Shown here one piece after another: positions 23,038-52,333 of a stretch of 64,000 nucleotides of DNA. The stretch is taken from the NCBI GenBank assembly GCA_965220165.1, contig CBDCPJ010000054.1:385708-449707 (forward strand), read 5' to 3'. The notes under the pieces are model-generated. The model made no database searches, was not told where the DNA came from, and saw only the letters and a list, made by a program, of their open reading frames with translations. This stretch comes from Spirochaetia bacterium (GTDB taxonomy: Bacteria; Spirochaetota; Spirochaetia; G963692905). Each line of letters starts with the position of its first letter. The first letter of the stretch is position 1. The position numbers and the translations under genes are program-made.

Positions 23038-24630
23038 ATGAGAAAAAATGAAATTATCACTCTATTGCTTGTCGCCGGTATTCTTACTATGGCGGTATTA
23101 ATCAGTTCGCTCCTATTTTATCGCTTTGACCTTACCGAAAACAAGATCTATACCGTTTCCCCCGTTTCACGATCAGTGGCTCGCGACATACCTGAGCGGC
23201 TCACTATATCGTATTATCTTTCCGATGAATTGCGCGACAGATTTGTCGAAACCCAACAAATTGCCGACCTTATCTACCAATATGCCGCCTATTCGCGCGG
23301 ACGAATATCGGTGGAGGTCGTCGATCCAAATGTGGCCGGAGTAACAACCGACATAGAGATATTGGGCATCACGCCCCGTCAGATCCAGGTGATAGAAGAA
23401 AATCAACAGAGCGTCGCGGTAGTCTATAGCGGCGTCGTTATTTCCTACCTTGATAGAACGGAGATCATTCCCTTCGTTCTTACTCCGAGCGCCATAGAAT
23501 ATGAGGTGACTACCGCTATTCGCAATGTCGTCAGTCAGCGCGAAACCAATATAGGAATTGTGATTGGAAATAGCCAGCGAACAATCGAAAGAGATTATCA
23601 GCAGATTACGAGGTCCTTGCGACAGTCCTATTCAGTAGAGGTGATAGGAATTGGAGATAATATCCCCTCTAACATTGCGACATTGGTTGTGCTGGGCGCA
23701 GATTCGCTTGACGAATATTCCCTATTTCCAATAGACCAGCATATCATGCGAGGCGGGGGGGCGCTATTCGCCGTCGACGGAACAACTGTCAGTTTAGAGG
23801 CGGGGCTTGACGTGCAACCCATAGACGAAGATGCGCCAATTATACCACTGTTAGAAAACTACGGCGCGCGTCTTCGCAGAGCCCTTGCGCTGGATTCCAA
23901 TCATCTTCGTATTCCTGTCCAACAACAGAGCGGCGGAGGATTTATAATTCAGCAATTCTATCCCTATCCATTCTGGGTTCAGGTTTTCGAAGATAGCGTC
24001 AATTCAACGCATCCCGTTACCGCGCGTTTTGCCGGCGCAGACTTTTACTGGGCGAGCCCGCTTGAGATACTCGACGAAGAGAGAGTAGAAACATTAATCT
24101 CCACCTCTCCAAACGGTTTTATTCAGATGCCTCCGTTCAACGTCGATCCGACAGTCGCCTCGACGTTGCCGATTACCGACACCTCTGAGCGGGGGTCATA
24201 TCCACTGGTCATATCTATCAATCCGCCATTTGAGAGCTTCTATGACGAAATACCTACGCGTCCCGGAGAGGAGCCGATATGGACAGAGCTCGTCGAGTCT
24301 GGAGACAGCGGACGAGTCGTGGTGGTTGGCGACAGCGATATTGTAAGCTCTTTTGTTCAATTCTCCAACAGCGTCCAAAATTTTACTTTTGCCGAAAATT
24401 TGATCAGCTGGCTGGCAAATGACGAGGATCTCATCGATATCCGCACAAGATCGACGCGAAATCAACGCCTCTCCGCGATAGAAGATGAAGATCGGCGCAG
24501 TTTCATCGCTGGATTTGCCGCATTTATTAATATCTATTTTATCCCGTTGCTTGTTATTGGATATGGCATATTTCGCATGGCTCGAAAACGCCGTCTTAAC
24601 AAACTAACGTTAGGAAGTAACGCAAAATGA
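23038..24630 (+). CDS. GldG-like ABC transporter auxiliary component
   Basis: 530 aa; N- and C-terminal TM anchors with a large extracytoplasmic domain; organisation is typical of GldG/ABC_transp_aux. Confidence 0.7.
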   Translation: MRKNEIITLLLVAGILTMAVLISSLLFYRFDLTENKIYTVSPVSRSVARDIPERLTISYYLSDELRDRFVETQQIADLIYQYAAYSRGRISVEVVDPNVAGVTTDIEILGITPRQIQVIEENQQSVAVVYSGVVISYLDRTEIIPFVLTPSAIEYEVTTAIRNVVSQRETNIGIVIGNSQRTIERDYQQITRSLRQSYSVEVIGIGDNIPSNIATLVVLGADSLDEYSLFPIDQHIMRGGGALFAVDGTTVSLEAGLDVQPIDEDAPIIPLLENYGARLRRALALDSNHLRIPVQQQSGGGFIIQQFYPYPFWVQVFEDSVNSTHPVTARFAGADFYWASPLEILDEERVETLISTSPNGFIQMPPFNVDPTVASTLPITDTSERGSYPLVISINPPFESFYDEIPTRPGEEPIWTELVESGDSGRVVVVGDSDIVSSFVQFSNSVQNFTFAENLISWLANDEDLIDIRTRSTRNQRLSAIEDEDRRSFIAGFAAFINIYFIPLLVIGYGIFRMARKRRLNKLTLGSNAK

Positions 24631-25667
24631 ACTATCGTAAGAAGATTACTATTTTATCATCGACCCTCGGTATTTTAATTATTGTTTATTTTCTATTGTT
24701 ATTGCTATCGCCGAGGTCTCCCCGCCAGATAGACGAAAAACTTATCGGCAATCTATCTGTGGAAGATGTTGTCCGTATTGAATTGGATTTGGATGGGGAC
24801 AGTCTTATTTCGCTGAGCGGGACCGAAGAGAATTGGACGATTGCCATCGGCGACGATTTTTTTCCCGCTCGTTACGATCGCATTTCGTCATTTCTCGAAA
24901 ACATCGCCGCATTGCAAATAGAGCGCCGCGTAACCGATAATGTCGATGTAGCGGAAAACTTTGACCTGGATTCAGATTCCGCTAAAAAAATCACCTTGTA
25001 TAACGCCGACAATAGCTCATTATTTTCGTTGCTCACGGGAAAATCGGCGCCGACGAACAATCGGCGATACGCCCAGTTAGACGAGGCATCCGATATACTG
25101 CTAGTCAGCGATGAAATTGGTTTCTATTTACAGCAATCGGAGAACTACTGGTCGGCGCTCGGAATCTATCCCGATTCGCTCGACGGGGAGCAGGTCGTCT
25201 CAATCTCTATCGACGCAAACAATCTTATATTGGCCGATGCGGAAAATCCGCTGTCTATTCAATACAGCATTAATAGAGAGGTGGACGCATGGACGGCGGG
25301 CGAAGAATATCTTGACGCTCTGTCGACCGACGACGCCGATAGCGATGCGACCCGGTCGCTCGATACCGAAAAAATTGACCGCGTGATCGACTCGTTGCTC
25401 AATCTTGACGGCGCTGAATTTGTCGTTACGGGTCTTACCGATTTGATAACTGAGCTCGACATGCCTGCCGCGACGATAGGATTTACGTTAGACAATGGTC
25501 AGCGCTACGGTCTTGAAATTGGCGCGCGGGATCCCGAAAATACCCAACGTTTTTTCGCGCGCCCCATCTACCCAAATGCTTCTCGGCAGTATAGCTATTA
25601 TACAAGCGTTTGGAATTTGGAGAGGATTATGCAGCCGCTTGATGGGTTGCTGTCCGATGATGAATAG
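24627..25667 (+). CDS. DUF4340 domain protein
   Basis: 346 aa; N-terminal TM. It follows a GldG-like gene, which is the usual position for DUF4340. 4-nt overlap with the upstream gene. Confidence 0.55.
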   Translation: MNYRKKITILSSTLGILIIVYFLLLLLSPRSPRQIDEKLIGNLSVEDVVRIELDLDGDSLISLSGTEENWTIAIGDDFFPARYDRISSFLENIAALQIERRVTDNVDVAENFDLDSDSAKKITLYNADNSSLFSLLTGKSAPTNNRRYAQLDEASDILLVSDEIGFYLQQSENYWSALGIYPDSLDGEQVVSISIDANNLILADAENPLSIQYSINREVDAWTAGEEYLDALSTDDADSDATRSLDTEKIDRVIDSLLNLDGAEFVVTGLTDLITELDMPAATIGFTLDNGQRYGLEIGARDPENTQRFFARPIYPNASRQYSYYTSVWNLERIMQPLDGLLSDDE

Positions 25668-25721: not shown

Positions 25722-25945
25722 GGATGGTTTGGGCGTTGCGGGCTATTTGCTGGGCGTTTGGAAATGCAAGAATTGCCGCCCGCTGAGGGGGGTAGCGTAA
25801 TAGCGCGGAGCGCTATGGAGCGAGGGGGGAGACAGCGATGTTCTTACCGTTCTCCGGTAGATAATCCGCGCTCCAATGTGTTCGTATCGCGCATATGCGA
25901 GGCTTCGAGCATATGCGTTGGTCGCAATCGCCCTCCCCCCCCCCC
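25722..25945 (+). repeat. Intergenic dispersed repeat, copy A (G6/C-run-bounded structured element)
   Basis: GGTTTGGGCGTTGCGGGC ... GAGGGGGGTAGCGTAATAGCGCGGAGCGCTATGGAGCGAGGGGGGAGAC ... CCCTC11. Matches the copies at 38479-38740 (reverse orientation) and 49028-49198. Confidence 0.7.
25931..25945 (+). repeat. Homopolymeric tract CCCTC11 (poly-G on the minus strand) about 95 bp upstream of the response-regulator start
   Basis: Direct reading of the sequence. Confidence 0.9.
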
Positions 25946-26039
25946 ACAACTTTATATTCTATCAATGGTATTTCATTGACATATCGGTCTATAGTGTCTA
26001 CGTTTGTGTGTAGTATGCTAACAATAGCGGGGAGGCGCA

Positions 26040-26753
26040 ATGAATAAAACTATTTTGGTTGTCGATGACGAACAGAGCAATGTTGAATTTTTCGAGGTGA
26101 TGTTTCCGAAGATGGGATTCAATGTTTTAACGGCATCCAATGGCAAAGACGCGCTTGAGACTATCAACGATCACGATATCGATCTTGTGCTACTGGATAA
26201 TGTGATGCCGATTATGTCGGGCAAAGAGATGCTTACGCATCTCAAGCAGTCGCCGCGATACGCGCATAAGGCTCGTATTCCGGTGATTATGTTTTCTGCG
26301 CTGCAGAGTCCCCATGACAAGGCGGAGGGGTATGATTTGGGCGTTGTCGATTATATTACCAAGCCGTTTAACCTTTCGGAGGTGTTGGCGCGAATCCATG
26401 CGGCGTTGCGGACGCAAGAGATGGCCGAACAACTTATCGCTCGAGAGCATAGAACCGCTCTATTCGATTCGCTGAATAAGCTTTTCGTCTACTTTACCAA
26501 ACATCTTCGAGAATCTATTGACAAGCTTCGGGAATCTTCTAGCCAGATCGATATTACCGATAGCAAAGCGGTGCTTCGGTTGTTGGAAAATGTCAAGGCG
26601 GAAACAAACTCAATTATGGCGACTCTCGAGGGGCTGGAAGATGAGATTGCCAATTTTCAAGGCGATGGAGAGGCTATCAAAAAGAATGCGCTTACCTTGG
26701 CGGGGCTTGAGGAAAAGTATTCTCGCCACTACCGGCAGCATGCGCGGAATTAA
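26040..26753 (+). CDS. Response regulator receiver (CheY-like REC) protein with coiled-coil C-terminus and no DNA-binding domain
   Basis: 237 aa; phospho-acceptor context VLLDNVMP (Asp), N-terminal acidic pair VDDE, conserved K (ITKPF). Confidence 0.8.
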   Translation: MNKTILVVDDEQSNVEFFEVMFPKMGFNVLTASNGKDALETINDHDIDLVLLDNVMPIMSGKEMLTHLKQSPRYAHKARIPVIMFSALQSPHDKAEGYDLGVVDYITKPFNLSEVLARIHAALRTQEMAEQLIAREHRTALFDSLNKLFVYFTKHLRESIDKLRESSSQIDITDSKAVLRLLENVKAETNSIMATLEGLEDEIANFQGDGEAIKKNALTLAGLEEKYSRHYRQHARN

Positions 26754-26980
26754 TGATGTGCATCTCTCCGGAAAAGCGACAGGTCTTGGATCTTTTTACC
26801 CAGGGAAGAAAGATGTATATCGAGCGAAAATTTGGCGAGGCGCTTGTTATGTTTAGAAAGGCGCTGTTGATCGATCCACATGACGGACCTTCAAGGGTCT
26901 ATTATCGACGGTGCGCGGCATTCCAGAAAAATCCTCCGCCTCCTGAATGGAACGGGGTTTTTACGTTTAAAACGAAATGA
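26753..26980 (+). CDS. Small hypothetical protein (single TPR-like helix pair)
   Basis: 75 aa; ATGA start/stop overlaps with both neighbours suggest translational coupling; a TPR-like segment EALVMFRKALLIDPHD. Confidence 0.35.
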   Translation: MMCISPEKRQVLDLFTQGRKMYIERKFGEALVMFRKALLIDPHDGPSRVYYRRCAAFQKNPPPPEWNGVFTFKTK

Positions 26981-27606
26981 ACAAGCCTATCTTTTCTCAT
27001 CACCATGCTCCTTCTTCCGCAATTGGCGCCAGCGATTCGCTTGTCGGCGAGCTCTCTTTTGATACTTCCCTTGTCATAACCGGCAAATTTAGCGGAAAGA
27101 TCATCTCAAAGGGGCAGTTGATCATTGCGGATACCGCGGAGGTAGAGGGAGAGATCATTGTGGATACCATTGTTATCCATGGAACCGCGCGTGGTCTGCT
27201 TCGCGCAAAAAAGCGTCTTGAGGCCGCGGAAGCCGCTCGCATCTATGCGAAAATTTTTACTTCATCGTTGACGATAGCCGATGGGGCGCTATTTGAGGGT
27301 ACGTGCGATATGTTTTCTGAAGATGGGCTTCTGGATAGCGCCGCGCCATCTTCATCGAGCGGCGCGATAGAGAAGAATAGCGCAGATCGCAAGCCGCCGC
27401 CCGCCTCTTCCAAAACGAACGAATCGGCTAACGTCGCAAAACCCGGCGCGTCCAGGAAAATAACGAAGGCAAAATTCGCCCCTTCGGCTTTGGACGACAA
27501 AAGCGACAAACCAAGCGAAAGAGGCTCGGCAGACAAAGACGGGTCAACGGACAAAGGCGTTTCGACGAAGGCGTTCAAACAAAATAAATCTCCTCCCTCA
27601 ATGTAG
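26977..27606 (+). CDS. Bactofilin family cytoskeletal protein
   Basis: 209 aa; beta-helical repeat pattern (VITGKFSGKIISKGQLIIADTAEVEGEIIVDTIVIHGTARG) followed by a disordered Ser/Lys/Asp-rich tail. Confidence 0.7.
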   Translation: MNKPIFSHHHAPSSAIGASDSLVGELSFDTSLVITGKFSGKIISKGQLIIADTAEVEGEIIVDTIVIHGTARGLLRAKKRLEAAEAARIYAKIFTSSLTIADGALFEGTCDMFSEDGLLDSAAPSSSSGAIEKNSADRKPPPASSKTNESANVAKPGASRKITKAKFAPSALDDKSDKPSERGSADKDGSTDKGVSTKAFKQNKSPPSM

Positions 27607-28866
27607 ATGGGCGATACTTCCCAGCCGATAATACGCCTCATTCTTATTGGCAGCGAATTAACTGAGGGTCGTCGAAGCGATCGGCATGCGCGCTACCTTG
27701 CCGCTCAGCTTGACGCTATGGGATGCGCTGTCGTCCAGATAACGTTGTTGCCCGACCATCGCGACTCTATGCGACAAGCGATGAGCGATGCCTTTGCTCG
27801 AAGCGACGCCGTAATTATAACCGGCGGGCTTGGGCCGACGAGCGACGATATCACACGCGATGTCATCTCCGAGGTTGTAGACGCTCCGCTGGAGTATAGT
27901 AATGAAATCTGGGAGGGCATATGCTCCTATCTAGGCGACAGGAATATCAATCAGACAAATCGCCGCCAAGCGATGGCGCCGAGATCGTTTGCCTATATTC
28001 AAAATATGAATGGCACGGCTCCGGGATTGATGGGCTCGTATGGGGCATGCTCCATTTTTGCGTTGCCCGGCCCTCCGCGCGAGTTGCGACCAATGTTTGA
28101 GCGATCTGTCGTTCCGGAATTGGAGCGATTATTTTCGCTCGCGAGGCCAAATAGATTGCATATGACCATATTCTTTACTCCCGAATCCGAGCTTGAGGAG
28201 GCGCTTCGCGAGCGCTCCGATGAATCCTTGCGATGGAGCACACAGTGCGGACGGTCGCGCATCGCGCTATTTCTCTATGGCGACGAGGATGCCGCCAATC
28301 ATACCGCTGTCAGACTATTGCGACGACTTGGGCCGATTCGCGCGCAGTTTGGCGCATGCGACCCGGCTCGCCTGGCGTTTGAACAGTTAGAACGCCATCG
28401 CGCAATCGTATCGGTGGCCGAATCGTGCACCGGAGGCGGGGTTATGGCCGCGTTAACCGGAGTTGCCGGGTGCTCTCGCGTTCTATGGGGCGGAGGCGTA
28501 GTCTATCGCAACGATGCGAAAGAGCGGGTGGTCGGCGCGCGGCGCGATCGACTGGATCAATATGGGGCGGTATCGGAAGAGATCGCGCTTGATATGGCTC
28601 GCGGGGCGCTGGCGATGAGCGAACAGGCGACTCTTGCGATCGCCATCACTGGGTTGGCCGGACCCGAGGGGGCTACCGATAGCCTGCCTGTGGGGACGGT
28701 CTATATCGCCGTTGTCGATCGCGCCGGCAAAGTTTGCAACCAACGATTGCTATTTCGCGGCGATAGGAAATGCGTACAGAAGCGCGCGGTAATGGCGGCG
28801 CTATTTATGATCGCCCATTTTTGGGACGACCCCGCCCCTTCATTCGAGGCGCTCTCCGCGCGATAA
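27607..28866 (+). CDS. cinA: CinA family competence/damage-inducible protein (MocF-like N-domain plus nicotinamide-nucleotide amidase C-domain)
   Basis: 419 aa; N-terminal LIGSELTEG, C-terminal VAESCTGG motif. Confidence 0.85.
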   Translation: MGDTSQPIIRLILIGSELTEGRRSDRHARYLAAQLDAMGCAVVQITLLPDHRDSMRQAMSDAFARSDAVIITGGLGPTSDDITRDVISEVVDAPLEYSNEIWEGICSYLGDRNINQTNRRQAMAPRSFAYIQNMNGTAPGLMGSYGACSIFALPGPPRELRPMFERSVVPELERLFSLARPNRLHMTIFFTPESELEEALRERSDESLRWSTQCGRSRIALFLYGDEDAANHTAVRLLRRLGPIRAQFGACDPARLAFEQLERHRAIVSVAESCTGGGVMAALTGVAGCSRVLWGGGVVYRNDAKERVVGARRDRLDQYGAVSEEIALDMARGALAMSEQATLAIAITGLAGPEGATDSLPVGTVYIAVVDRAGKVCNQRLLFRGDRKCVQKRAVMAALFMIAHFWDDPAPSFEALSAR

Positions 28867-35053: not shown

Positions 35054-38000
35054 TTATTCTAAAAGAGCTTCGTTGATTGGCTCTGAGATTGGCTCTGAAA
35101 GCCCAGAATTAGAAGGCTGAATTATTCTCGCCCTGCTAATAATAACCTCGTTGGAAGCCGGCGCTTCGGCATCAGACTCATCATCTGGCTCGTCGAGCTG
35201 TTCCGCGTTGTCGTCGACTACGGGGACGATCAGATTATCGGAAGCCCCCTCAATATCGGATAGAACGCCCAGTCCATCGGCAGGATCTCCGTAATCGACG
35301 ACGCCCAGCCAATCGACGACGCCCAGTCCATCGGCAGAATCTCCGTAATCGACGACGCCCAGTCCATCGGCGGAATCTCCGTAATCGACGACGCCCAGTC
35401 CATCGGCAGGATCCCCGTAATCGACGACGCCCAGTCCATCGGCGGAATCCCCGTAATCGACGACGCCCAGTCCATCGGCAGGCTCCCCGTAATCGACGAC
35501 GCCCAGTCCATCGGCGGAATCCCCGTAATCGACGACGCCCAGTCCATCGGCAGGATCTCCGTAATCGACGACGCCCAGTCCATCGGCGGAATCTCCGTAA
35601 TCGACGACGCCCAGTCCATCGGCAGCCCAGTCCAATCTCCGTAATCGACGAATAATCGACGACGCCCAGCCCATCGGCAGGAATCCCCGTAATCGACGAC
35701 GCCCAGTCCATCGGCAGGCCCGTAATCGACGACGCCCAGTCCATCGGCAGGAATCCCCGTAAATGGCGGGATCAGCGGCAAAATAGTTTGAGAGCCCAGT
35801 CCATCGGCTTTGCGTTTGCGCTTCCGCGTAAATGGCGATTTGCGCAAAATGCGTTTGCGCTTGCGCTTGCGTTTGCGCTTGCGTTTCGAGCGCCCCTTGC
35901 CGCTCGCCAGCGCCGACTATATCGTCCGATTCGCTAACTTCCTCGACCTCTTGGTCTCCGAGAAAAGACAACGCGGCAATATCTAGCTCCAATTCAACCG
36001 TCTGAAGATTGCTACTCAACCGCTTCACGAGGCCTTGCCGTCGCTCCTGTTCGAAACTATACAGCGTATCGTATTCGGTAGGCTCTGTATTCTCAATAAA
36101 TACCTCGGTTCTTACCCCCAACTCATAGCTCGGTGGCGGCAACAGGCCCGTGCGAGTCGCAATTTCATTGTAGACAATACCTTCGGCCGGCGGCACAAAC
36201 TCTCTGCGAGATAAATTCTTATGAATTTCACTCATATATTTTGCCCAGATAGGGCCTGCCGTTACGGCGCCCGTTTGATTTGTGCCCAACGAGTTGTTCC
36301 CTCCGCGATCAAATCCAATCCATACAGCCGTGGTGTAATAGGGAGAAAATCCCACAGTCCATGCGTCGCTCCAATTTTGGGTAGTGCCGGTTTTGCCAGC
36401 CACAGGAGAGGTAAACCCCCCGGCGATATTCTTAGCGTATCGCAACGTGCCAGAATTTACCGTCGACTGAAGAAGATCGGTCATAACATAGGCGGCTTGC
36501 GGACTAATAATCTGTCGCTCTTCAAGCGTCTGCTCTATCTCTTTTTGCCTCTGCTGTCGAAGATCGAGCACAATTTTGCCATTTTTATCCTCTATATAGA
36601 GAATGGCAAAGGGATCCACCAAAACGCCATTATTGGCAAATGTCGAGTATGCCTGCGCCATTTCGATGGGAGCCAATTCAACAATTCCAAGCCCCACCGG
36701 GTATCGACGCACCAAATTGCGGCTCAGCATATCCTCCGCGGGAATGCCAAGAAGACGGCGCGCTGTGGTAAGGGAATCGTCAAAACCCACCCGCTCGAGC
36801 ACTCGCAAACTGGGCACATTCATCGAATTGGCCAACGCTTGACGCGCCAAAACCGGACCGTGCCAGACGCCTTTGTAGTTCTCGGGCGTGTAGGCGGTGC
36901 CGTCTTCGTTCCAAAACACAACCGGCGCGTCGTAGATCATCGTCGCGGGAGTAATAACGCGCTTATCGATCGCGGCGGCATAGTAGAGCGGCTTAAAGGA
37001 CGAGCCCGGCTCCATCCTTCCGTCAATGGCTCGATTAAATTGGTTGCGCGATTCGAATTTGCTCCCGCCAATCATACTCAAGATATTGCCCGTCCCATTC
37101 TCCAATGTGACTAGCGCCCCCTCGACAATGGTTCGCTGCGCCTCGCGGCGATTGGCATCCAACGAGGCCTTGGTAATATCTCGAAGATCGCTCGATTCGC
37201 CGCGCGAGAACAGAAGAGAGATCATTTCCATCGCCGGCGCGATCTCCGTATTGTAATAGCGCTTGGCATCCCTGCGAATAGGAGCGTCCGCCGCGTAGAT
37301 ATCGGGGATATTAAACGCCAGCGCCAGCGCGTCGACCATGGCGATATATTCATCTCCCCCGCTCACTCTCCGATTATTATTTCGTTGGTAGATACGGTTG
37401 GCGTCTTTGAGCCCGTCGCTTATATGTCGCCGCGCCGCCTGTTGATATCCCAGATCGAGCGTTGTGCGCACCACAAACCCGCCGGTGTTGATATTATTAT
37501 TGCCCAATAGATAGCGATTCTCCAAAAGATATCGCACATATTCGCTAAAATAGGGAGCCAAATCATCGCGCTCGAAAAATGCGGTCGAGGTATTGGCTCG
37601 CGTGAAATCATAGCTCCCCCAATATTCGTTAAACGACTGATCCGCCTCCGCTCTTGACGTGTAGCCCAATTCAACCATTTGGTCGAGCACCGTCCGCTGA
37701 ATTTTGCGCGCGTTATTGGGATTGCGAATAGGGGAATAGATCGTGGGATTAGCCAGCTGGATAACCAGCATAACCGATTCGGCAAGGGTAAGATCGCGCG
37801 CGGAGTGGCCAAAAAAGAACTGAGACGCCGCCTCTATTCCATAGTTGCCGTGGCCAAAAAACATCGTATTGAGATACTTCTCCAGAATCTCGTATTTCGT
37901 CCAGTATCGCTCGACATGGTATGCCCACCAGAGCTCTTTTATCTTGCGCGAAATCGTAATTTCGCTACGATCGGCGTAGAGATGCCCCGCCAGTTGCTGT

Positions 38001-38449
38001 GTCAACGTGCTTCCGCCAGAAAAATAGCTATTGGTTATTTGATTCCAGATAGCGCGCGCCGTCCCGCGAACGCTAAATCCATTGTGTTGGAAAAATGTGC
38101 GATCCTCTCGAGTAATCAGCGCGTTGATCAGGTGGCGAGGGAGGCTGTCGATCGAAATAAGATCGCGCTTCTCTTCGGCGAAGAATTTGGTGATGAGCGC
38201 GCCGTGCCGATCGAGCACTTGGGTGGGAAGCGCCGCGGGCGTCGCCGCCAAAAGGTCGCTCTCGTCGATATTGTATACCGAGGCTATCCCAATGCCGGCG
38301 ACACCGCCGATGCAGATCATCGCAAGCGCGCAGAGAATCCAGAGCAACGCCCTCCATTTAGATGCTACACTTCGCATAGCGCAATGCTTATCATCATCGC
38401 CCGCCCTTGTCAATGCAAAAGATCGGCCATTGTTAGACCAAATCTCCAC
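35054..38449 (-). CDS. mrcA: Class A penicillin-binding protein (PBP1A: GT51 transglycosylase plus transpeptidase) with an approximately 300-aa repetitive C-terminal extension
   Basis: 1131 aa; N-terminal TM; GT51 motifs (EDRTFFQHNGF, GGSTLTQQL); transpeptidase SxxK-like and KTGT motifs. The tail contains (ADGLGVVDYGDS/P)n. Confidence 0.88.
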   Translation of the reverse strand: MEIWSNNGRSFALTRAGDDDKHCAMRSVASKWRALLWILCALAMICIGGVAGIGIASVYNIDESDLLAATPAALPTQVLDRHGALITKFFAEEKRDLISIDSLPRHLINALITREDRTFFQHNGFSVRGTARAIWNQITNSYFSGGSTLTQQLAGHLYADRSEITISRKIKELWWAYHVERYWTKYEILEKYLNTMFFGHGNYGIEAASQFFFGHSARDLTLAESVMLVIQLANPTIYSPIRNPNNARKIQRTVLDQMVELGYTSRAEADQSFNEYWGSYDFTRANTSTAFFERDDLAPYFSEYVRYLLENRYLLGNNNINTGGFVVRTTLDLGYQQAARRHISDGLKDANRIYQRNNNRRVSGGDEYIAMVDALALAFNIPDIYAADAPIRRDAKRYYNTEIAPAMEMISLLFSRGESSDLRDITKASLDANRREAQRTIVEGALVTLENGTGNILSMIGGSKFESRNQFNRAIDGRMEPGSSFKPLYYAAAIDKRVITPATMIYDAPVVFWNEDGTAYTPENYKGVWHGPVLARQALANSMNVPSLRVLERVGFDDSLTTARRLLGIPAEDMLSRNLVRRYPVGLGIVELAPIEMAQAYSTFANNGVLVDPFAILYIEDKNGKIVLDLRQQRQKEIEQTLEERQIISPQAAYVMTDLLQSTVNSGTLRYAKNIAGGFTSPVAGKTGTTQNWSDAWTVGFSPYYTTAVWIGFDRGGNNSLGTNQTGAVTAGPIWAKYMSEIHKNLSRREFVPPAEGIVYNEIATRTGLLPPPSYELGVRTEVFIENTEPTEYDTLYSFEQERRQGLVKRLSSNLQTVELELDIAALSFLGDQEVEEVSESDDIVGAGERQGALETQAQTQAQAQTHFAQIAIYAEAQTQSRWTGLSNYFAADPAIYGDSCRWTGRRRLRACRWTGRRRLRGFLPMGWASSIIRRLRRLDWAADGLGVVDYGDSADGLGVVDYGDPADGLGVVDYGDSADGLGVVDYGEPADGLGVVDYGDSADGLGVVDYGDPADGLGVVDYGDSADGLGVVDYGDSADGLGVVDWLGVVDYGDPADGLGVLSDIEGASDNLIVPVVDDNAEQLDEPDDESDAEAPASNEVIISRARIIQPSNSGLSEPISEPINEALLE
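35262..35770 (-). repeat. About 10 tandem copies of a 39-bp unit inside the PBP1A 3' region, encoding a 13-aa DGLGVVDYGDxA repeat; distal copies are degenerate and out of register
   Basis: Direct reading: the unit acgacgcccagtccatcggc(a/g)g(a/g)at(c/t)(c/t)ccgtaatcg recurs head-to-tail. Shadow ORFs 35230-35847 and 35250-35744 are the same repeat read in other frames. Confidence 0.9.
35806..35895 (-). repeat. GCGCTT/GCGTTT hexanucleotide microsatellite encoding a (TQAQ)n segment of the PBP1A tail
   Basis: gcgtttgcgcttgcgcttgcgtttgcgcttgcgtttc read directly. Confidence 0.85.
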
Positions 38450-38478: not shown

Positions 38479-38740
38479 TGGGAAGGGGGGAGATAGTCCG
38501 CAAGCGAGGCGTCTATCTCTATCGTTTCGCAGCCCGAATGCGTCGCGATGACCCGACAATCGCCGTCTCCCCCCTCGCTCCATAGCGCCTTCGCGCCGAA
38601 CGGCGCGAACCGCGTCCGCCTCTTCGGGCTCCACTCGCGCTCCGCCCTGACGGCCGCTGGCGCTATTGCGCTACCCCCCTCGTCGGGCGAAACGACGAAA
38701 TTATGCGCGCCGCGCCCTCCAAGCGTCGCCCGATAAGCCC
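38479..38740 (-). repeat. Intergenic dispersed repeat, copy B (reverse orientation), between the argS stop and the PBP1A start
   Basis: Its reverse complement reads ...GACGAGGGGGGTAGCGCAATAGCGC...GGAGCGCGAGTGGAGC...GCGCTATGGAGCGAGGGGGGAGAC...TCTCCCCCCTTCCC. Confidence 0.7.
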
Positions 38741-38741
38741 A

Positions 38742-40463
38742 TTACATGCGATCCAGCGGGCTAATATTAATCATATCCAGGCCATTGCATAAGACTATCC
38801 TCGTCGCGCGAGCCAACGCCAATCGAGCCGTTCGCAATTGACGATCGTCGGCGGTGGCGATAGGGTTGCTTTGATAGAAACGCGAAAAAGATCGCCCCAA
38901 ATCGTAGAGATACCCAACAAGCGACGAAACATCCATGGCGATAGCCGACCGCTCCACTTGTTGGGGGAATTGGCCAAGAATATAACATAGTTCCCACTCA
39001 TCGTCGGAGGCGAGCAGTTCGAAATCGCAGTCAAACGTTTCGCCCTCGTCGCCAGCCCGTCGCAGTATGCTGGCTATCCTCGCGCTGACATATTGAAGAT
39101 ATGGACCGGTGTCGCCGTTGAACGAAAGCGATCGTTTGGGATCAAATATTATATCGCTCGCGGGATTAAACTTAAGAAGATAGTAGTGCACCGCCGCCAG
39201 CGCAATCGCCTCCGCCGAGTCCAACGAATCGTCGGTCAATTGACGCGAGCGTATCTCTTCTTTAGCCAAATCGGTCAATGAATCGAGCAACCAATCGGCA
39301 TCGACGACGACTCCCTCGCGCGATTTCATCTTGCCCTCGGGAAGATGCACCATCCCGTATGAGAGATGATGAAGATGATTTGCCCAAGAATAGCCTAGCA
39401 TCTTCATAACATGGAAAAAAACCTGAAAATGGTAGCGTTGCTCCGACGCGACCACATAAATTAGCTTATCAAATGGCCAATCCTCGCGGCGACGAATGGC
39501 GGTTCCAATATCTTGCGTAAGATAGAGCGACGTCCCGTCGCCGCGAAGCAGTACCTTGCTATCGAGGCCAATATCGCCAAGATCGACCATAATAGCCCCG
39601 TCGTCGGATCGATAAAAACATCCCTTGCGAAGACCTTGCGACACGGCCTCCTTTCCCTCGCGATACGTATCGCTCTCCAAGTCGATCCTATCAAAAGATA
39701 TGCCCGTGCGACGGTAGGTCTCTTCCATGCCTTTGATAGCCCATTCGTTCATTTTCTTCCACAGGGCTCGCACGGTGTCATCTCCGCGCTCCCACGCCCT
39801 TAGCATCTCGGATGCCTCGTGTTCGGCGCTTGGATATTCCTTGCTCCAGCGAGCAAATCGCATATACCACTCTCCAACGAAATGATCCGGCTTTTTGCGC
39901 GCCGTCTCGGGAGTCTCGCCATTGCCAAAACGGCGATAGGCGCTCATTGATTTGCATATATGGATGCCTCGATCGTTAATGAGATTGGCGGAGCGCGTTT
40001 CGGCCCCCGCCGCGCGCGAGACGCGCGCGAGACTTTCGCCGATAATGTTGTTGCGAAGGTGCCCAAGGTGAAGCGGCTTGTTGGTATTGGGGCTGGAAAA
40101 TTCAATCATAATCTTCCGCCCTCGCAACGCGTCGCCATGGCCAAAACGCTCTCGTTCCGATTCGACCGCGCGAAGAAGACGGCCAATGTAGTTACGGCGC
40201 CCATAGCGAATGTTTAAATAGGGTCCAGCGCTTGTCGCGCCTCCCCATTCATCGTCGGGCAACAGTTTGATAAGAGCCTGCGCGATACTCTGGGGCGATT
40301 GACGAAGCGGCTTCGCGTAGGGATAGAGCGGGAATGAGAGATCGCCGAGCGATCTATTGGGAGGAGTTTCAGATGCTACGCCATCAAGCAAATCGATTTC
40401 CGGAGACAATTGACGCAACGCCTCTTTTACCCGGCGTTGCCAAAGATCAAGGAATTGCCGCAT
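38742..40463 (-). CDS. argS: Arginine--tRNA ligase
   Basis: 573 aa; class I HIGH region PNTNKPLHLGHLRN; C-terminal DALR anticodon-binding region. Confidence 0.9.
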   Translation of the reverse strand: MRQFLDLWQRRVKEALRQLSPEIDLLDGVASETPPNRSLGDLSFPLYPYAKPLRQSPQSIAQALIKLLPDDEWGGATSAGPYLNIRYGRRNYIGRLLRAVESERERFGHGDALRGRKIMIEFSSPNTNKPLHLGHLRNNIIGESLARVSRAAGAETRSANLINDRGIHICKSMSAYRRFGNGETPETARKKPDHFVGEWYMRFARWSKEYPSAEHEASEMLRAWERGDDTVRALWKKMNEWAIKGMEETYRRTGISFDRIDLESDTYREGKEAVSQGLRKGCFYRSDDGAIMVDLGDIGLDSKVLLRGDGTSLYLTQDIGTAIRRREDWPFDKLIYVVASEQRYHFQVFFHVMKMLGYSWANHLHHLSYGMVHLPEGKMKSREGVVVDADWLLDSLTDLAKEEIRSRQLTDDSLDSAEAIALAAVHYYLLKFNPASDIIFDPKRSLSFNGDTGPYLQYVSARIASILRRAGDEGETFDCDFELLASDDEWELCYILGQFPQQVERSAIAMDVSSLVGYLYDLGRSFSRFYQSNPIATADDRQLRTARLALARATRIVLCNGLDMINISPLDRM

Positions 40464-49027: not shown

Positions 49028-49198
49028 AATGGGTTTGGGCGTTGCGGGCGTCGCGCTGATCGATCTACTATTGAGGGATGTCGCCCGCAGAGGGGGGAGC
49101 GCAATAGCGCAGGGGCGAGCCCAGCGGAGCGCGAGCGGAGCTGGATCAGCGCGCCCCGATCAGCGCTATGGAGCGCGGGGGGAGACTTCCCCCTTCTC
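49028..49198 (+). repeat. Intergenic dispersed repeat, copy C, in the divergent aldo/keto reductase / hisD promoter region
   Basis: GGGTTTGGGCGTTGCGGGC...GAGGGGGGAGCGCAATAGCGC...GGAGCGCGAGCGGAGC...GCGCTATGGAGCGCGGGGGGAGACTTCCCCC. Confidence 0.7.
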
Positions 49199-49358
49199 TT
49201 TTTATGGGCGAAATAAATAATTTTACAATTATAGTTTATGAGAAATGCGCCGACATTTATAATGGCTGTCCTGTCGGCGCAGTTCCCCTCCCAGTTTCTG
49301 CGTCGGCAACCAGCCTTTTTTTGTTTTTTGCGCGGCTCCATTTGCCGGCGCCGCGATT

Positions 49359-50729
49359 ATGGCAAATTATTGCGAAATATTCCGTTACTTGCTAGCATTA
49401 GCCGCTATGGCATTGGTAAACTATTGGCGGTGGGCGCGGCTTTCTGCCGAACAGCGGACGCGGCTTCTTCGCCGAGCGCAGGGCGATATCGATTCTATTA
49501 TGTCGGAGGTGGCCGAGATTGTCGCTTCGGTCAAAAATGGGGGCGACCACGCGCTCTGCCGATATATCGCGAAGTTCGACCATATCGAGCTTCGCGGCGG
49601 GGAGCTTCGAGTCGCCGAAGATGAGATAGAGAACGCTGAAACCCTGTTGCCGCAAAGCATTCGCAAGGCGATCGATTTTTCGGTGGAGAACGCGTTTCGT
49701 TTTCACCGTCCGCAAAAACGCGAGAGCGATGCCCAAATGGAAATACGACCAGGCGTATTCGCGCGAGAACGCGTCGATCCCATATCGTCTGTCGGGCTCT
49801 ATGTGCCGAGGGGTCGGGGGAGTTTTCCCTCTATGCTCTATATGATGGCGGTTCCCGCTCGAATAGCCGGGGCGCGTCGCGTCGTTGTAACCACCCCCGC
49901 GCTTCCCGATGGGAGCGTCGATCCCGCATGTCTCTACGCGGCGAAACTCTGCGGGGTCGCGGAGATATACCGGGCGGGCGGCGCGCACGCCATCGCCGCG
50001 CTGGCATATGGAACAGAATCTATCGAGGGTGTCGACGCCATTTTTGGGCCGGGGAGCGCCTGGGTGGCCGCGGCTAAACGCGTCGTGGCATCGGTTGTCA
50101 ATGTGGGGTTGCCGGCCGGCCCCTCCGAAGCGATTATACTCGCCGATCGATCGGCGAACGCGAGAAATGCCGCGCTCGATCTTGCCATTGAGGCGGAGCA
50201 TGGGGTAGATTCGTCGGCGTTGCTGATCACCGATTGCGAATCGATCGCGCTGGCGGTTCAAGGCTATGTCGACGAGGCGATAGAAGCGACACCATCCCCC
50301 CGCGGCGAGATACTTGCGCGGGTATTTGGCGAGGGCGGGTATGGCGGCATTATCCTCTGCGAGGATCAGCGGCAGGCGGTCGATCTTGTCAATCGCTTTG
50401 CCCCCGAGCATCTGCAGATTAGAACGGAGAATCCCGAAAAAACCGCGGAAGAGATTGTCAATAGCGGCGAAATTCTTCTGGGCGATTACGCCCCCTTTAG
50501 TCTGGCAAACTACGCCGTCGGAGCGAATGCGGTGTTGCCCACGGGGGGCGCCGCCAGAAGCTGGTCGGGGCTCTCTGTCCGCGATTTTCAGAAGTCGTCC
50601 GCAATTATTTCCATCAATAGAACGGGCTATCGTTCACTCCGCGATCATGTCATAGCGCTGGCCGATTACGAGGGATTTTTTCGCCACGCCGAAGCGCTGA
50701 GGCAGAGAGACGAAGACCATGGAGTTTAA
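49359..50729 (+). CDS. hisD: Histidinol dehydrogenase
   Basis: 456 aa (alternative ATG at 49410); characteristic GGDHALCRYIAKFD and SVGLYVPRG motifs; about 65% GC. Confidence 0.85.
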   Translation: MANYCEIFRYLLALAAMALVNYWRWARLSAEQRTRLLRRAQGDIDSIMSEVAEIVASVKNGGDHALCRYIAKFDHIELRGGELRVAEDEIENAETLLPQSIRKAIDFSVENAFRFHRPQKRESDAQMEIRPGVFARERVDPISSVGLYVPRGRGSFPSMLYMMAVPARIAGARRVVVTTPALPDGSVDPACLYAAKLCGVAEIYRAGGAHAIAALAYGTESIEGVDAIFGPGSAWVAAAKRVVASVVNVGLPAGPSEAIILADRSANARNAALDLAIEAEHGVDSSALLITDCESIALAVQGYVDEAIEATPSPRGEILARVFGEGGYGGIILCEDQRQAVDLVNRFAPEHLQIRTENPEKTAEEIVNSGEILLGDYAPFSLANYAVGANAVLPTGGAARSWSGLSVRDFQKSSAIISINRTGYRSLRDHVIALADYEGFFRHAEALRQRDEDHGV

Positions 50730-52154: not shown

Positions 52155-52250
52155 GTGCCGTGTGGACGTAAGCGAAAACGCCAAAAGATATCTACGCATA
52201 AGCGAAAAAAAAAGCTACGCAAGAATCGCCATAAAAAGAAGGGCAAATAG
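52155..52250 (+). CDS. Unannotated 31-aa lysine/arginine-rich ORF resembling ribosomal protein bS22 / DUF1713 family
   Basis: GTG at 52155 lies 10 nt after the AAGGAG at 52139-52144. Peptide: VPCGRKRKRQKISTHKRKKKLRKNRHKKKGK. It is below the 60-aa cut-off of the ORF track. Confidence 0.45.
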   Translation: MPCGRKRKRQKISTHKRKKKLRKNRHKKKGK

Positions 52251-52333
52251 GATAGACGCGCCGATTATGGTGTGTCGGCGCTCTTTCTGTAGACTGCGGC
52301 TGACGCTCTCTTTCTGATCGTTGCATAGATAAT

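Follow-up and report, generated by a model that had tools for sequence, protein, structure and literature searches.

A modular, hairpin-rich intergenic repeat in three spacers of a spirochaete genome

Several kinds of small dispersed repeat are known from the intergenic DNA of bacteria. MITEs, the miniature inverted-repeat transposable elements, are defined as sequences of <500 bp that carry terminal inverted repeats, are flanked by direct repeats and are rich in AT (PMC10969869). Repetitive extragenic palindromes (REPs) and the related SMAG units consist of the tetranucleotide GTAG and a palindrome of 20-40 nt and are linked to RAYT transposases, and SMAG units alter the stability of upstream transcripts (PMC3184786). 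BOX elements are modular (boxA-boxB(n)-boxC), and SPRITE carries a motif resembling a Rho-independent terminator (PMC10969869, PMC3184786). Here we describe an intergenic repeat that is present in three copies (A, B and C) in a 64-kb window, by which we mean the whole 64,000-nt stretch analysed, from a genome of the Spirochaetia (contig CBDCPJ010000054.1 of assembly GCA_965220165.1, positions 385,708 to 449,707). The element is about 170-260 nt long, GC-rich and hairpin-forming: every copy combines two conserved boxes with three hairpins, of which P1 precedes box 1, P2 is formed between the boxes, and P3 joins the G-run of box 2 to a C-run near the 3' end. It looks like a member of the same general kind as REP/SMAG, BOX and SPRITE, in a family that is itself new to the databases searched. 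We propose, with a probability that we put a little below one half (about 0.47), that it is a lineage-specific, modular, hairpin-rich dispersed repeat which, read as RNA where transcription units end, acts there as punctuation, that is, as a terminator, a 3'-end barrier or an insulator.

The pneumococcal BOX and SPRITE elements resemble this repeat in being modular and intergenic, with conserved end modules, a variable middle and stable stem-loops, and the terminator-like motif of SPRITE has a parallel in copy C. Unlike SPRITE, however, the element has the compact terminator form in one of its three copies only; its G6/C6 stems and twin G-boxes also differ, and it belongs to the Spirochaetota rather than the Firmicutes. 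Like REP and SMAG, it is intergenic and GC-rich, is built around an imperfect palindrome and stands behind co-oriented genes, and the P2 hairpin of copy A, outer pairs included, spans 31 nt and directly follows GTAG. It departs from them in having 170-260 nt, three hairpins and two long invariant boxes where a REP has a single palindrome of 20-40 nt; the P2 unit measures 99 nt in B and 80 nt in C, with apical inserts of 52-71 nt, GTAG is missing from C (GGGGGGAGCG, which lacks the T, against GGGGTAGCG in A and B), and no RAYT is visible in the window. REPs as a class also come in tens to hundreds of copies in genomes that encode a RAYT, which is an IS200/IS605-like tyrosine transposase. We found no sequence relationship of the element to SMAG, SPRITE or BOX.

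Three copies built around two near-invariant boxes

Our sample consists of three copies from one genome region, namely the window and the same region in a second assembly. The copies occupy the three intergenic segments in which the original prediction had placed them, the blocks that it quoted can be read there directly, and the neighbouring genes are those that it named: a response regulator (domain Response_reg) downstream of A, PBP1A (Transgly and Transpeptidase) downstream of B, and hisD (Histidinol_dh) downstream of C (Table 1). Box 1 has the consensus GAGGGGGG(T)AGCG(C/T)AATAGCGC, with AATAGCGC as its final part, and is identical between copies at 20-21 of 22 positions; the base that precedes GAGGGGGG is T, C or A, and not only A or T as first reported. 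Box 2 has the consensus GCGCTATGGAGCG(A/C)GGGGGGAGAC (GCGCTATGGAGCGmGGGGGGAGAC) and is identical at 24/24 positions between A and B and at 23/24 between these and C. A 20-mer from this box, GCTATGGAGCGNGGGGGGAG, occurs three times in the window at <=3 mismatches, against 0.01 occurrences expected from dinucleotide shuffles. The core of the element has a GC content of 66-75%, compared with 49.4% for the window.

Conservation is mosaic. The boxes are 91-100% identical between copies (alignment z 7.5-10), and in the 62 nt that lie 5' of box 1 copies A and C are clearly related (z 5.9) and B less so; the exact 18-mer of the upstream module of A has its counterpart in C at 49032-49049. The inserts differ greatly in length: those between the boxes (the apex of P2) measure 3, 71 and 52 nt in A, B and C, and those that separate box 2 from the C-run (the apex of P3) 101, 74 and 2 nt. 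For the P3 inserts of A and B no alignment is possible (z 1.3); those of P2 in B and C are only weakly similar (z 2.5), with GGAGCGCGAG(T/C)GGAGC common to both. In a covariance-model alignment the apical P2 motif of B and C appears as a degenerate copy of box 2. Since, in addition, the two G-boxes resemble each other (CGAGGGGGG is present twice in B), the unit contains an internal duplication.

All three copies are also contained in a 54.8-kb contig (3.48x coverage) of the ENA assembly ERZ25072490, which falls within the span of the window and is 99.7% identical to the window over 19.7 kb. The repeat is therefore no assembly duplication artefact, an outcome that the original prediction had named as refuting it. 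Within the element the two assemblies differ in the C-run of A (12 versus 11 C) and by one substitution in the P3 insert of B (window position 38548), and copy C is unchanged; comparison of all three copies gave no compensatory change and no presence/absence polymorphism between the assemblies. A TTGACA hexamer (25976-25981) follows the C-run of A in which they differ (25935-25945) at a distance of about 30 nt, and the difference could be either a homopolymer sequencing error or a length (phase) variation.

That the similarity arises by chance, from an assembly artefact or from a small gene (MERGGR..., 54-75 aa) beginning at the ATG of box 2 appears very improbable to us. The expectation of 0.01 matches and the agreement of two assemblies argue against the first two. 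As for a gene, the ATG is conserved in 3/3 copies and opens reading frames (ORFs) of 54, 57 and 75 aa at 25815-25979 (+), 38583-38410 (-) and 49168-49395 (+), and by hand translation those of A and B keep the same frame across the C-run, which then supplies Pro codons, and end at the same CATTGA; we judge this shared frame to be coincidental. Against a gene, the lengths of the inserts between the boxes do not differ by multiples of 3, a Shine-Dalgarno sequence is missing from copy C, and the products share the box-encoded residues only and are otherwise unrelated. None of the ORFs was called by the gene caller of the ENA assembly, and six-frame translations of both boxes used as a protein query gave no match at E<=10. 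The earlier statement that no copy overlaps a plausible protein holds in substance: the box-2 ATG opens ORFs in all copies, but these are neither conserved nor called.

We were not able to find the element anywhere else, and its description as a novel family is upheld in the collections that we scanned. A fuzzy search (<=4 errors), blastn-short with the entire spacers and a covariance model with filters off all failed to reveal a fourth copy in the 64 kb. That model, R1, for which the inserts had been trimmed from the copies, finds A, B and C again and no further copy in the window or in about 155 kb from other loci; a match at 26 bits (E about 0.008 in that search) was rejected because it lies inside an acyltransferase gene and lacks the boxes. 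Exact scans with the box-2 20-mer gave 4 matches in GTDB species genomes, 2 in JGI metagenomes and 0 in IMG/VR, and all six are single chance matches, of which five fall within coding regions (Mur ligase, MurD, Bcp-like) and the sixth is on a short, unrelated contig. In collections of plasmids and phages blastn returned just a 39-nt chance match in fhuB. With Rfam 15 only two tRNAs in the window pass the gathering threshold, and at E<=10 each spacer yields noise far below threshold. ARAGORN finds no tRNA or tmRNA-like gene in the spacers; a tRNA-like reading of box 1, in which UAGCGCAAUAGCGC would resemble a D-arm, was dropped because neither ARAGORN nor the tRNA and tmRNA models of Rfam support it, and the two tRNA-Arg genes of the window are unrelated to the element.

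Table 1. Positions of the three copies and of their parts (numbered from the first letter of the window)
Feature	Position	Strand	Remarks
Copy A, entire element	25722..25945	+	55 nt past the stop of a DUF4340 gene (24627-25667); 95 nt 5' of the response-regulator ATG (26040)
Copy A, upstream module GGTTTGGGCGTTGCGGGC	25726..25743	+	exact 18-mer also in copy C
Copy A, box 1 GAGGGGGGTAGCGTAATAGCGC	25785..25806	+	G-run 1 and 5' arm of P2
Copy A, box 2 GCGCTATGGAGCGAGGGGGGAGAC	25810..25833	+	3' arm of P2, GGAGCG motif, G-run 2 = 5' arm of P3
Copy A, 3' arm of P3, ATCGCCCT + C11	25927..25945	+	C-run 25935-25945
Copy B, entire element	38479..38741	-	5' end overlaps the argS stop codon (TAA, 38742-38744); 3' end about 100 nt before the PBP1A ATG (38377)
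Copy B, P1 hairpin	38683..38733	-	TCGGGCGA (38733-38726) with TCGCCCGA (38690-38683), 8/8; 35-nt loop
Copy B, box 1 GAGGGGGGTAGCGCAATAGCGC	38660..38681	-	
Copy B, P2 apical insert, 71 nt	38589..38659	-	contains degenerate box 2 copy GGAGCGCGAGTGGAGC (38643-38628)
Copy B, box 2 GCGCTATGGAGCGAGGGGGGAGAC	38565..38588	-	
Copy B, C-run TCTCCCCCCT	38484..38493	-	pairs 10/10 with AGGGGGGAGA (38575-38566) = P3; 72 nt between arms
Copy C, entire element	49028..49205	+	spacer separating hisD (ATG 49359) from a divergent aldo-keto reductase gene (- strand, start about 48867)
Copy C, P1 hairpin	49043..49089	+	TGCGGGCG (49043-49050) with CGCCCGCA (49082-49089), 8/8
Copy C, box 1 GAGGGGGGAGCGCAATAGCGC	49090..49110	+	no T after G-run
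Copy C, P2 apical insert, 52 nt	49111..49162	+	inner stems GGGGCG/CGCCCC and CCAGC/GCTGG around loop GGAGCGCGAGCGGA (49126-49139)
Copy C, box 2 GCGCTATGGAGCGCGGGGGGAGAC	49163..49186	+	
Copy C, P3, minimal form	49177..49203	+	GGGGGGAGACTTCCCCC, then TTCTCTTTTT; fits intrinsic-terminator pattern

Hairpins, terminator-like signals and a possible role at RNA ends

When each module is folded alone, the same three hairpins are obtained in every copy. P1 is based on a GGGCG/CGCCC stem with a loop of about 31-35 nt and lies directly before box 1. P2 consists of the heptamers ATAGCGC and GCGCTAT, which pair perfectly in 3/3 copies, and 3-4 outer pairs, and P3 of G6AGA with UCUC6, with a G-run/C-run stem of 8/8 pairs in A, 10/10 in B and 7 pairs in C; the internal complementarity first noticed in this stretch is therefore real. 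In copy A the 5' arm of P1, GCGGGC (25738-25743), pairs by hand reading with GCCCGC (25778-25783), the local fold placing the pairing slightly elsewhere; the loop of P2 is GGA alone (25807-25809), and P3 joins CTCCCCCC (25933-25940) to GGGGGGAG (25824-25831). In an alignment of the trimmed core 94.6% of cells are paired, compared with 35-68% when the partners are slid, a control that is biased toward structure by construction because the structure was derived from the same three sequences. Both one-sided substitutions in the core helices keep a G-U pair on the G-rich strand and give A-C mismatches on the opposite strand, which is a slight hint of RNA on the G-rich strand. The variable parts keep their hairpins with other sequences, as in P1 (TCGGGCGA/TCGCCCGA in B, TGCGGGCG/CGCCCGCA in C) and in the stem around a conserved apical loop (GGGC/GCCC in B, CCAGC/GCTGG in C), but this is suggestive only, because the homology of the arms is uncertain (MAFFT aligns them differently). 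The original prediction had also named the element a candidate G-quadruplex former; this we rejected, as the shared part of no copy contains four G3+ tracts with loops of <=12 nt, (G3+N1-12)x3 G3+, and the G4Hunter maxima of 1.36-1.60 come from the G6 runs alone.

The P3 hairpin of copy C, followed by TTCTCTTTTT, passes a scan for intrinsic terminators (GC-rich stem, loop of 3-8 nt, U-run within 0-2 nt) with 7 pairs, 5 of them G-C. Sixty nucleotides downstream of this copy and on the same strand there is a second strong hairpin at 49264-49330 (+), GGCUG...CUGUCGGCGCAG / CUGCGUCGGCA...CAGCC (-33 kcal/mol, z -3.1), which is followed by U7GU6 and lies 30 nt before the ATG of hisD (49359). This hairpin looks like a terminator or attenuator on the hisD leader, distinct from copy C. 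As two terminator-like structures on the + strand occur here with no + strand gene upstream, rightward transcription of the spacer is suggested. Copies A and B stand directly behind co-oriented genes, 55 and 0 nt past the stop, and all three copies are oriented toward the downstream gene.

In our proposal the element would be read on its G-rich strand, either with the neighbouring transcription unit or immediately behind it, and its stable hairpins would punctuate the transcript. The leading part would fall to the P3 stem and the U-rich tract after it, serving as a terminator, as a 3'-end barrier to exonucleases or as an insulator that separates one transcription unit from the next. The working form would be the minimal P3 seen in copy C, and A and B, with their long P3 inserts, would be weakened forms. 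The hairpin bases and linkers, which make up the boxes, are near-invariant, while the apical parts are free in length and sequence. The closest functional precedents among dispersed repeats are SMAG, for its effect on the stability of upstream transcripts, SPRITE, for its terminator-like motif, and BOX, for its modular make-up with a variable middle.

A number of observations weigh against this proposal. Copies A and B fail the terminator scan, since their P3 stems close apices of 74-101 nt and are separated by 5-17 nt from the start of the U-rich tract (CTTTATATTCTAT in A, CCTTATATTTTATTT in B), and the scan itself is loose, with 39 sites found in 20 kb against 24 expected. The orientation toward the downstream gene is informative for A and B only, with a chance of about 1/4, because copy C in its divergent spacer would point toward a gene either way. 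Copy C has no co-oriented gene upstream, and a promoter scan of the three copies gave no convincing sigma-70 promoter upstream of the unit, whose 5' flanks are unrelated. Folding of the whole element barely beats that of shuffled sequence, and the sense strand is not better (z of -1.07, -0.50 and -2.26 for A, B and C, antisense -2.78, -1.54 and -1.96), so that it does not help in choosing a strand. The covariation check proposed with the first description returned 0 compensatory (double) changes in the core helices, where 15 of 19 pairs are invariant, which is one half of the refuting outcome named there (no further copies and no compensatory covariation); with three sequences this has no statistical power, and covariation is therefore silent, neither for nor against. 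The near-invariance of the 22-24-nt boxes extends to unpaired linker bases and so exceeds what hairpin formation needs. Finally, the window contains no transposase, terminal inverted repeats or clear target duplication that would explain how the repeat was dispersed.

The near-invariant unpaired bases point to a sequence-specific partner, protein or RNA, and are the strongest reason for keeping one in play. The main rival to our reading, which we consider unlikely, is that the element is a structured regulatory RNA family, either a multi-copy small RNA or a cis-acting leader. In one variant the boxes GAG6 and G6AGA compete for the single C-run (UCUC6UU) and so form alternative structures; in another, YGGAGCG/GGA motifs exposed in loops and linkers bind a protein, in the manner of a CsrA-type sponge. 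Both G-runs can indeed pair with the C-run region in every copy (G-run 1 of B by hand reading), but an internally duplicated G-box produces this automatically. A combination of constant hairpin bases and junctions with variable apices is typical of functional RNAs, the hairpins are kept despite differing arms (P1 uses other GGGCG copies in B than in A and C, and the stem that closes the conserved loop GGAGCGCGAGyGGA differs between B and C as described above), and the one-sided changes yield G-U on the G-rich strand; yet with three copies the apparent compensation hinges on how the variable parts are aligned. As in known multi-copy small RNA families and terminator leader RNAs, there is an invariant core with variable apices, one copy ends in a terminator and resembles a stand-alone unit, and a single C-rich tract is complementary to purine-rich, GGAG-like boxes. 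Unlike those families, the element has no conserved promoter upstream, no Rfam family even at E<=10, no conservation outside this genome (neither in about 85 kb of relatives nor in the scanned collections), no covariation support and weak fold z-scores. The downstream genes share no common class or theme, which argues against a riboswitch, as does the lack of the element before the syntenic response regulator in relatives.

The most far-reaching form of this idea would be a new class of structured RNA in a deep-branching, uncultivated spirochaete lineage. Here the three-hairpin RNA would use its two G-boxes (GAG6, G6AGA), competing for one C-run, to switch a terminator-type helix, and/or would titrate an RNA-binding protein through loop-exposed GGAGCG/GGA, with copy C as a free-standing gene and A and B embedded in 3' untranslated regions. 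We regard this as improbable.

Genomic setting, relatives and readings at the DNA level

The window is an ordinary housekeeping region of a spirochaete. Pallilysin and Borrelia_P83 domains, and homologues of the response regulator and of ArgS that are named Spirochaetia, Treponema or Alkalispirochaeta, support the phylum; the best non-self ArgS is just 54-56% identical, and the lineage is therefore isolated. Among the truly non-coding spacers of the window, the three longest are those that hold the copies; the other long gaps of the ORF map are occupied by small genes. In relatives, response regulator, small protein, bactofilin and CinA are encoded in a syntenic operon whose upstream spacer measures 47-88 nt and lacks the element, and the spacer behind ArgS, of 173-227 nt, lacks it as well. 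A search of about 85 kb of unique DNA from the nearest relatives with the covariance model and with patterns gave no real match. The short, element-free syntenic spacer of the relatives fits an insertion or expansion that would have taken place in this lineage.

This absence from the syntenic site, together with the dispersal over unrelated loci, would also be expected of a strictly mobile element, either a MITE or a REP moved by a RAYT or IS200-IS605-type transposase acting on hairpins of single-stranded DNA. In common with MITEs such as Correia, ERIC and QMITE the element is <500 bp, non-coding, intergenic and multi-copy, has size variants and, by prediction, folds into stable RNA stem-loops (PMC10969869). 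Hairpins lie near both of its ends, it lacks coding capacity, the GTAG directly 5' of the P2 palindrome in A and B recalls SMAG and REP (PMC3184786), and in all three copies the 5' boundary carries AATGG (ATGG in copy A), which is found again 10-65 nt past the C-run. On the other side, no terminal inverted repeats were found when repeats of about 4-30 bp were sought over each spacer: all arm pairs are internal, and the AATGG end is never joined to the 3' end. The core is GC-rich where MITEs are typically AT-rich, and no parent insertion sequence is known. AATGG is short, identical, at variable distance and not immediately flanking, and thus gives no clean target duplication; GTAG is missing in C. 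No transposase is encoded within the 64 kb, and the second strain has all copies in place. The copies, moreover, are mosaic rather than uniformly similar, and hence not recent. The MITE-like character first ascribed to the repeat is not sustained, given the missing terminal inverted repeats, the GC-rich core and the lack of a clear target-site duplication, and we give strict mobility little credence.

We also considered that the boxes might work as DNA, in a module upstream of promoters that binds a transcription factor or nucleoid protein. The half-sites would be TAGCGC-N2-TAGCGC with an inverted GCGCTA, and GAG6 twice, and the C-run would be a length-variable (phase-variable) spacer. Poly-G tracts upstream of the tpr genes of Treponema pallidum have been described as such spacers. 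Copies A and B are indeed followed, 30-70 nt past their ends, by a TTGACA hexamer, from which it is about 35-65 nt to the annotated start codon, yet the promoter scan gave no sigma-70-type site beside A, or beside B on the right strand. The near-invariant unpaired bases suggest sequence-specific recognition, but the half-sites are spaced by 3 to 71 nt, which is hard to fit to one dimeric binding mode, and ATAGCGC is a common heptamer in the genome (37 found against 21 expected). That the C-run of A differs by one C between two assemblies would suit a variable spacer, although the difference rests on a contig of 3.48x coverage and is possibly a homopolymer error. A sigma-54-like motif, TGGCCGATCTTTTGCA, lies 50 nt downstream of copy B, which would place the element where an upstream enhancer is expected, but it was found at B only. 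Taken together, a DNA-level module seems to us rather unlikely; we rank it behind the structured RNA family and ahead of strict mobility.

The sigma-54-like -24/-12 motif occupies 38414-38429 (-), 37 nt upstream of the annotated ATG of PBP1A. The pattern TGGC-N7-TTGCW has 5 matches in the window against 1 expected, and TGGCCGATCTTTTGCA is the sole intergenic one. The idea of a sigma-54 enhancer was dropped, as a downstream -24/-12 motif accompanies copy B alone.

Some further features of the region were recorded. The PBP1A gene (35054-38377, - strand) contains near the C-terminus of its product a 36-nt tandem array at 35239-35756, which encodes about 12-14 copies of the 12-aa unit ADGLGVVDYG(D/E)(S/P). 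The protein of the second assembly, at 1083 aa against 1107 aa in the window, is shorter by about two units, so that near-identical strains or assemblies differ in repeat number. The genes for response regulator, 73-75-aa protein, bactofilin and CinA, an operon conserved in distant spirochaete relatives, lie at 26040-28866 in the window, and at L013 10001-11657 and L019 3033-5649 in the relatives; its small protein is present in L019 and not called in L013, and in the regulator Pfam recognises the receiver domain alone. A basic ORF of 31 aa, VPCGRKRKRQKISTHKRKKKLRKNRHKKKGK, at 52155-52250 (+) is followed by a terminator-like hairpin at 52258-52281 and has no NCBIfam match; its extremely basic product may be a small ribosome-associated protein.

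What the repeat may mean

The element opens no long-standing question. Its design is unusual, with twin G6 boxes, one C-run and hairpin apices that tolerate the insertion of 0-100 nt, and its copies form a compact natural series of the G6AGA/UCUC6 stem, from a tetraloop version to inserts of 74-101 nt, for effects of apex insertion on termination. If our reading as transcript punctuation is true, three spacers are flagged in which the repeat may set transcript ends or the insulation of promoters, and a previously unseen family would be added to the small dispersed structured repeats, from a lineage of the Spirochaetota, where such elements have hardly been described.

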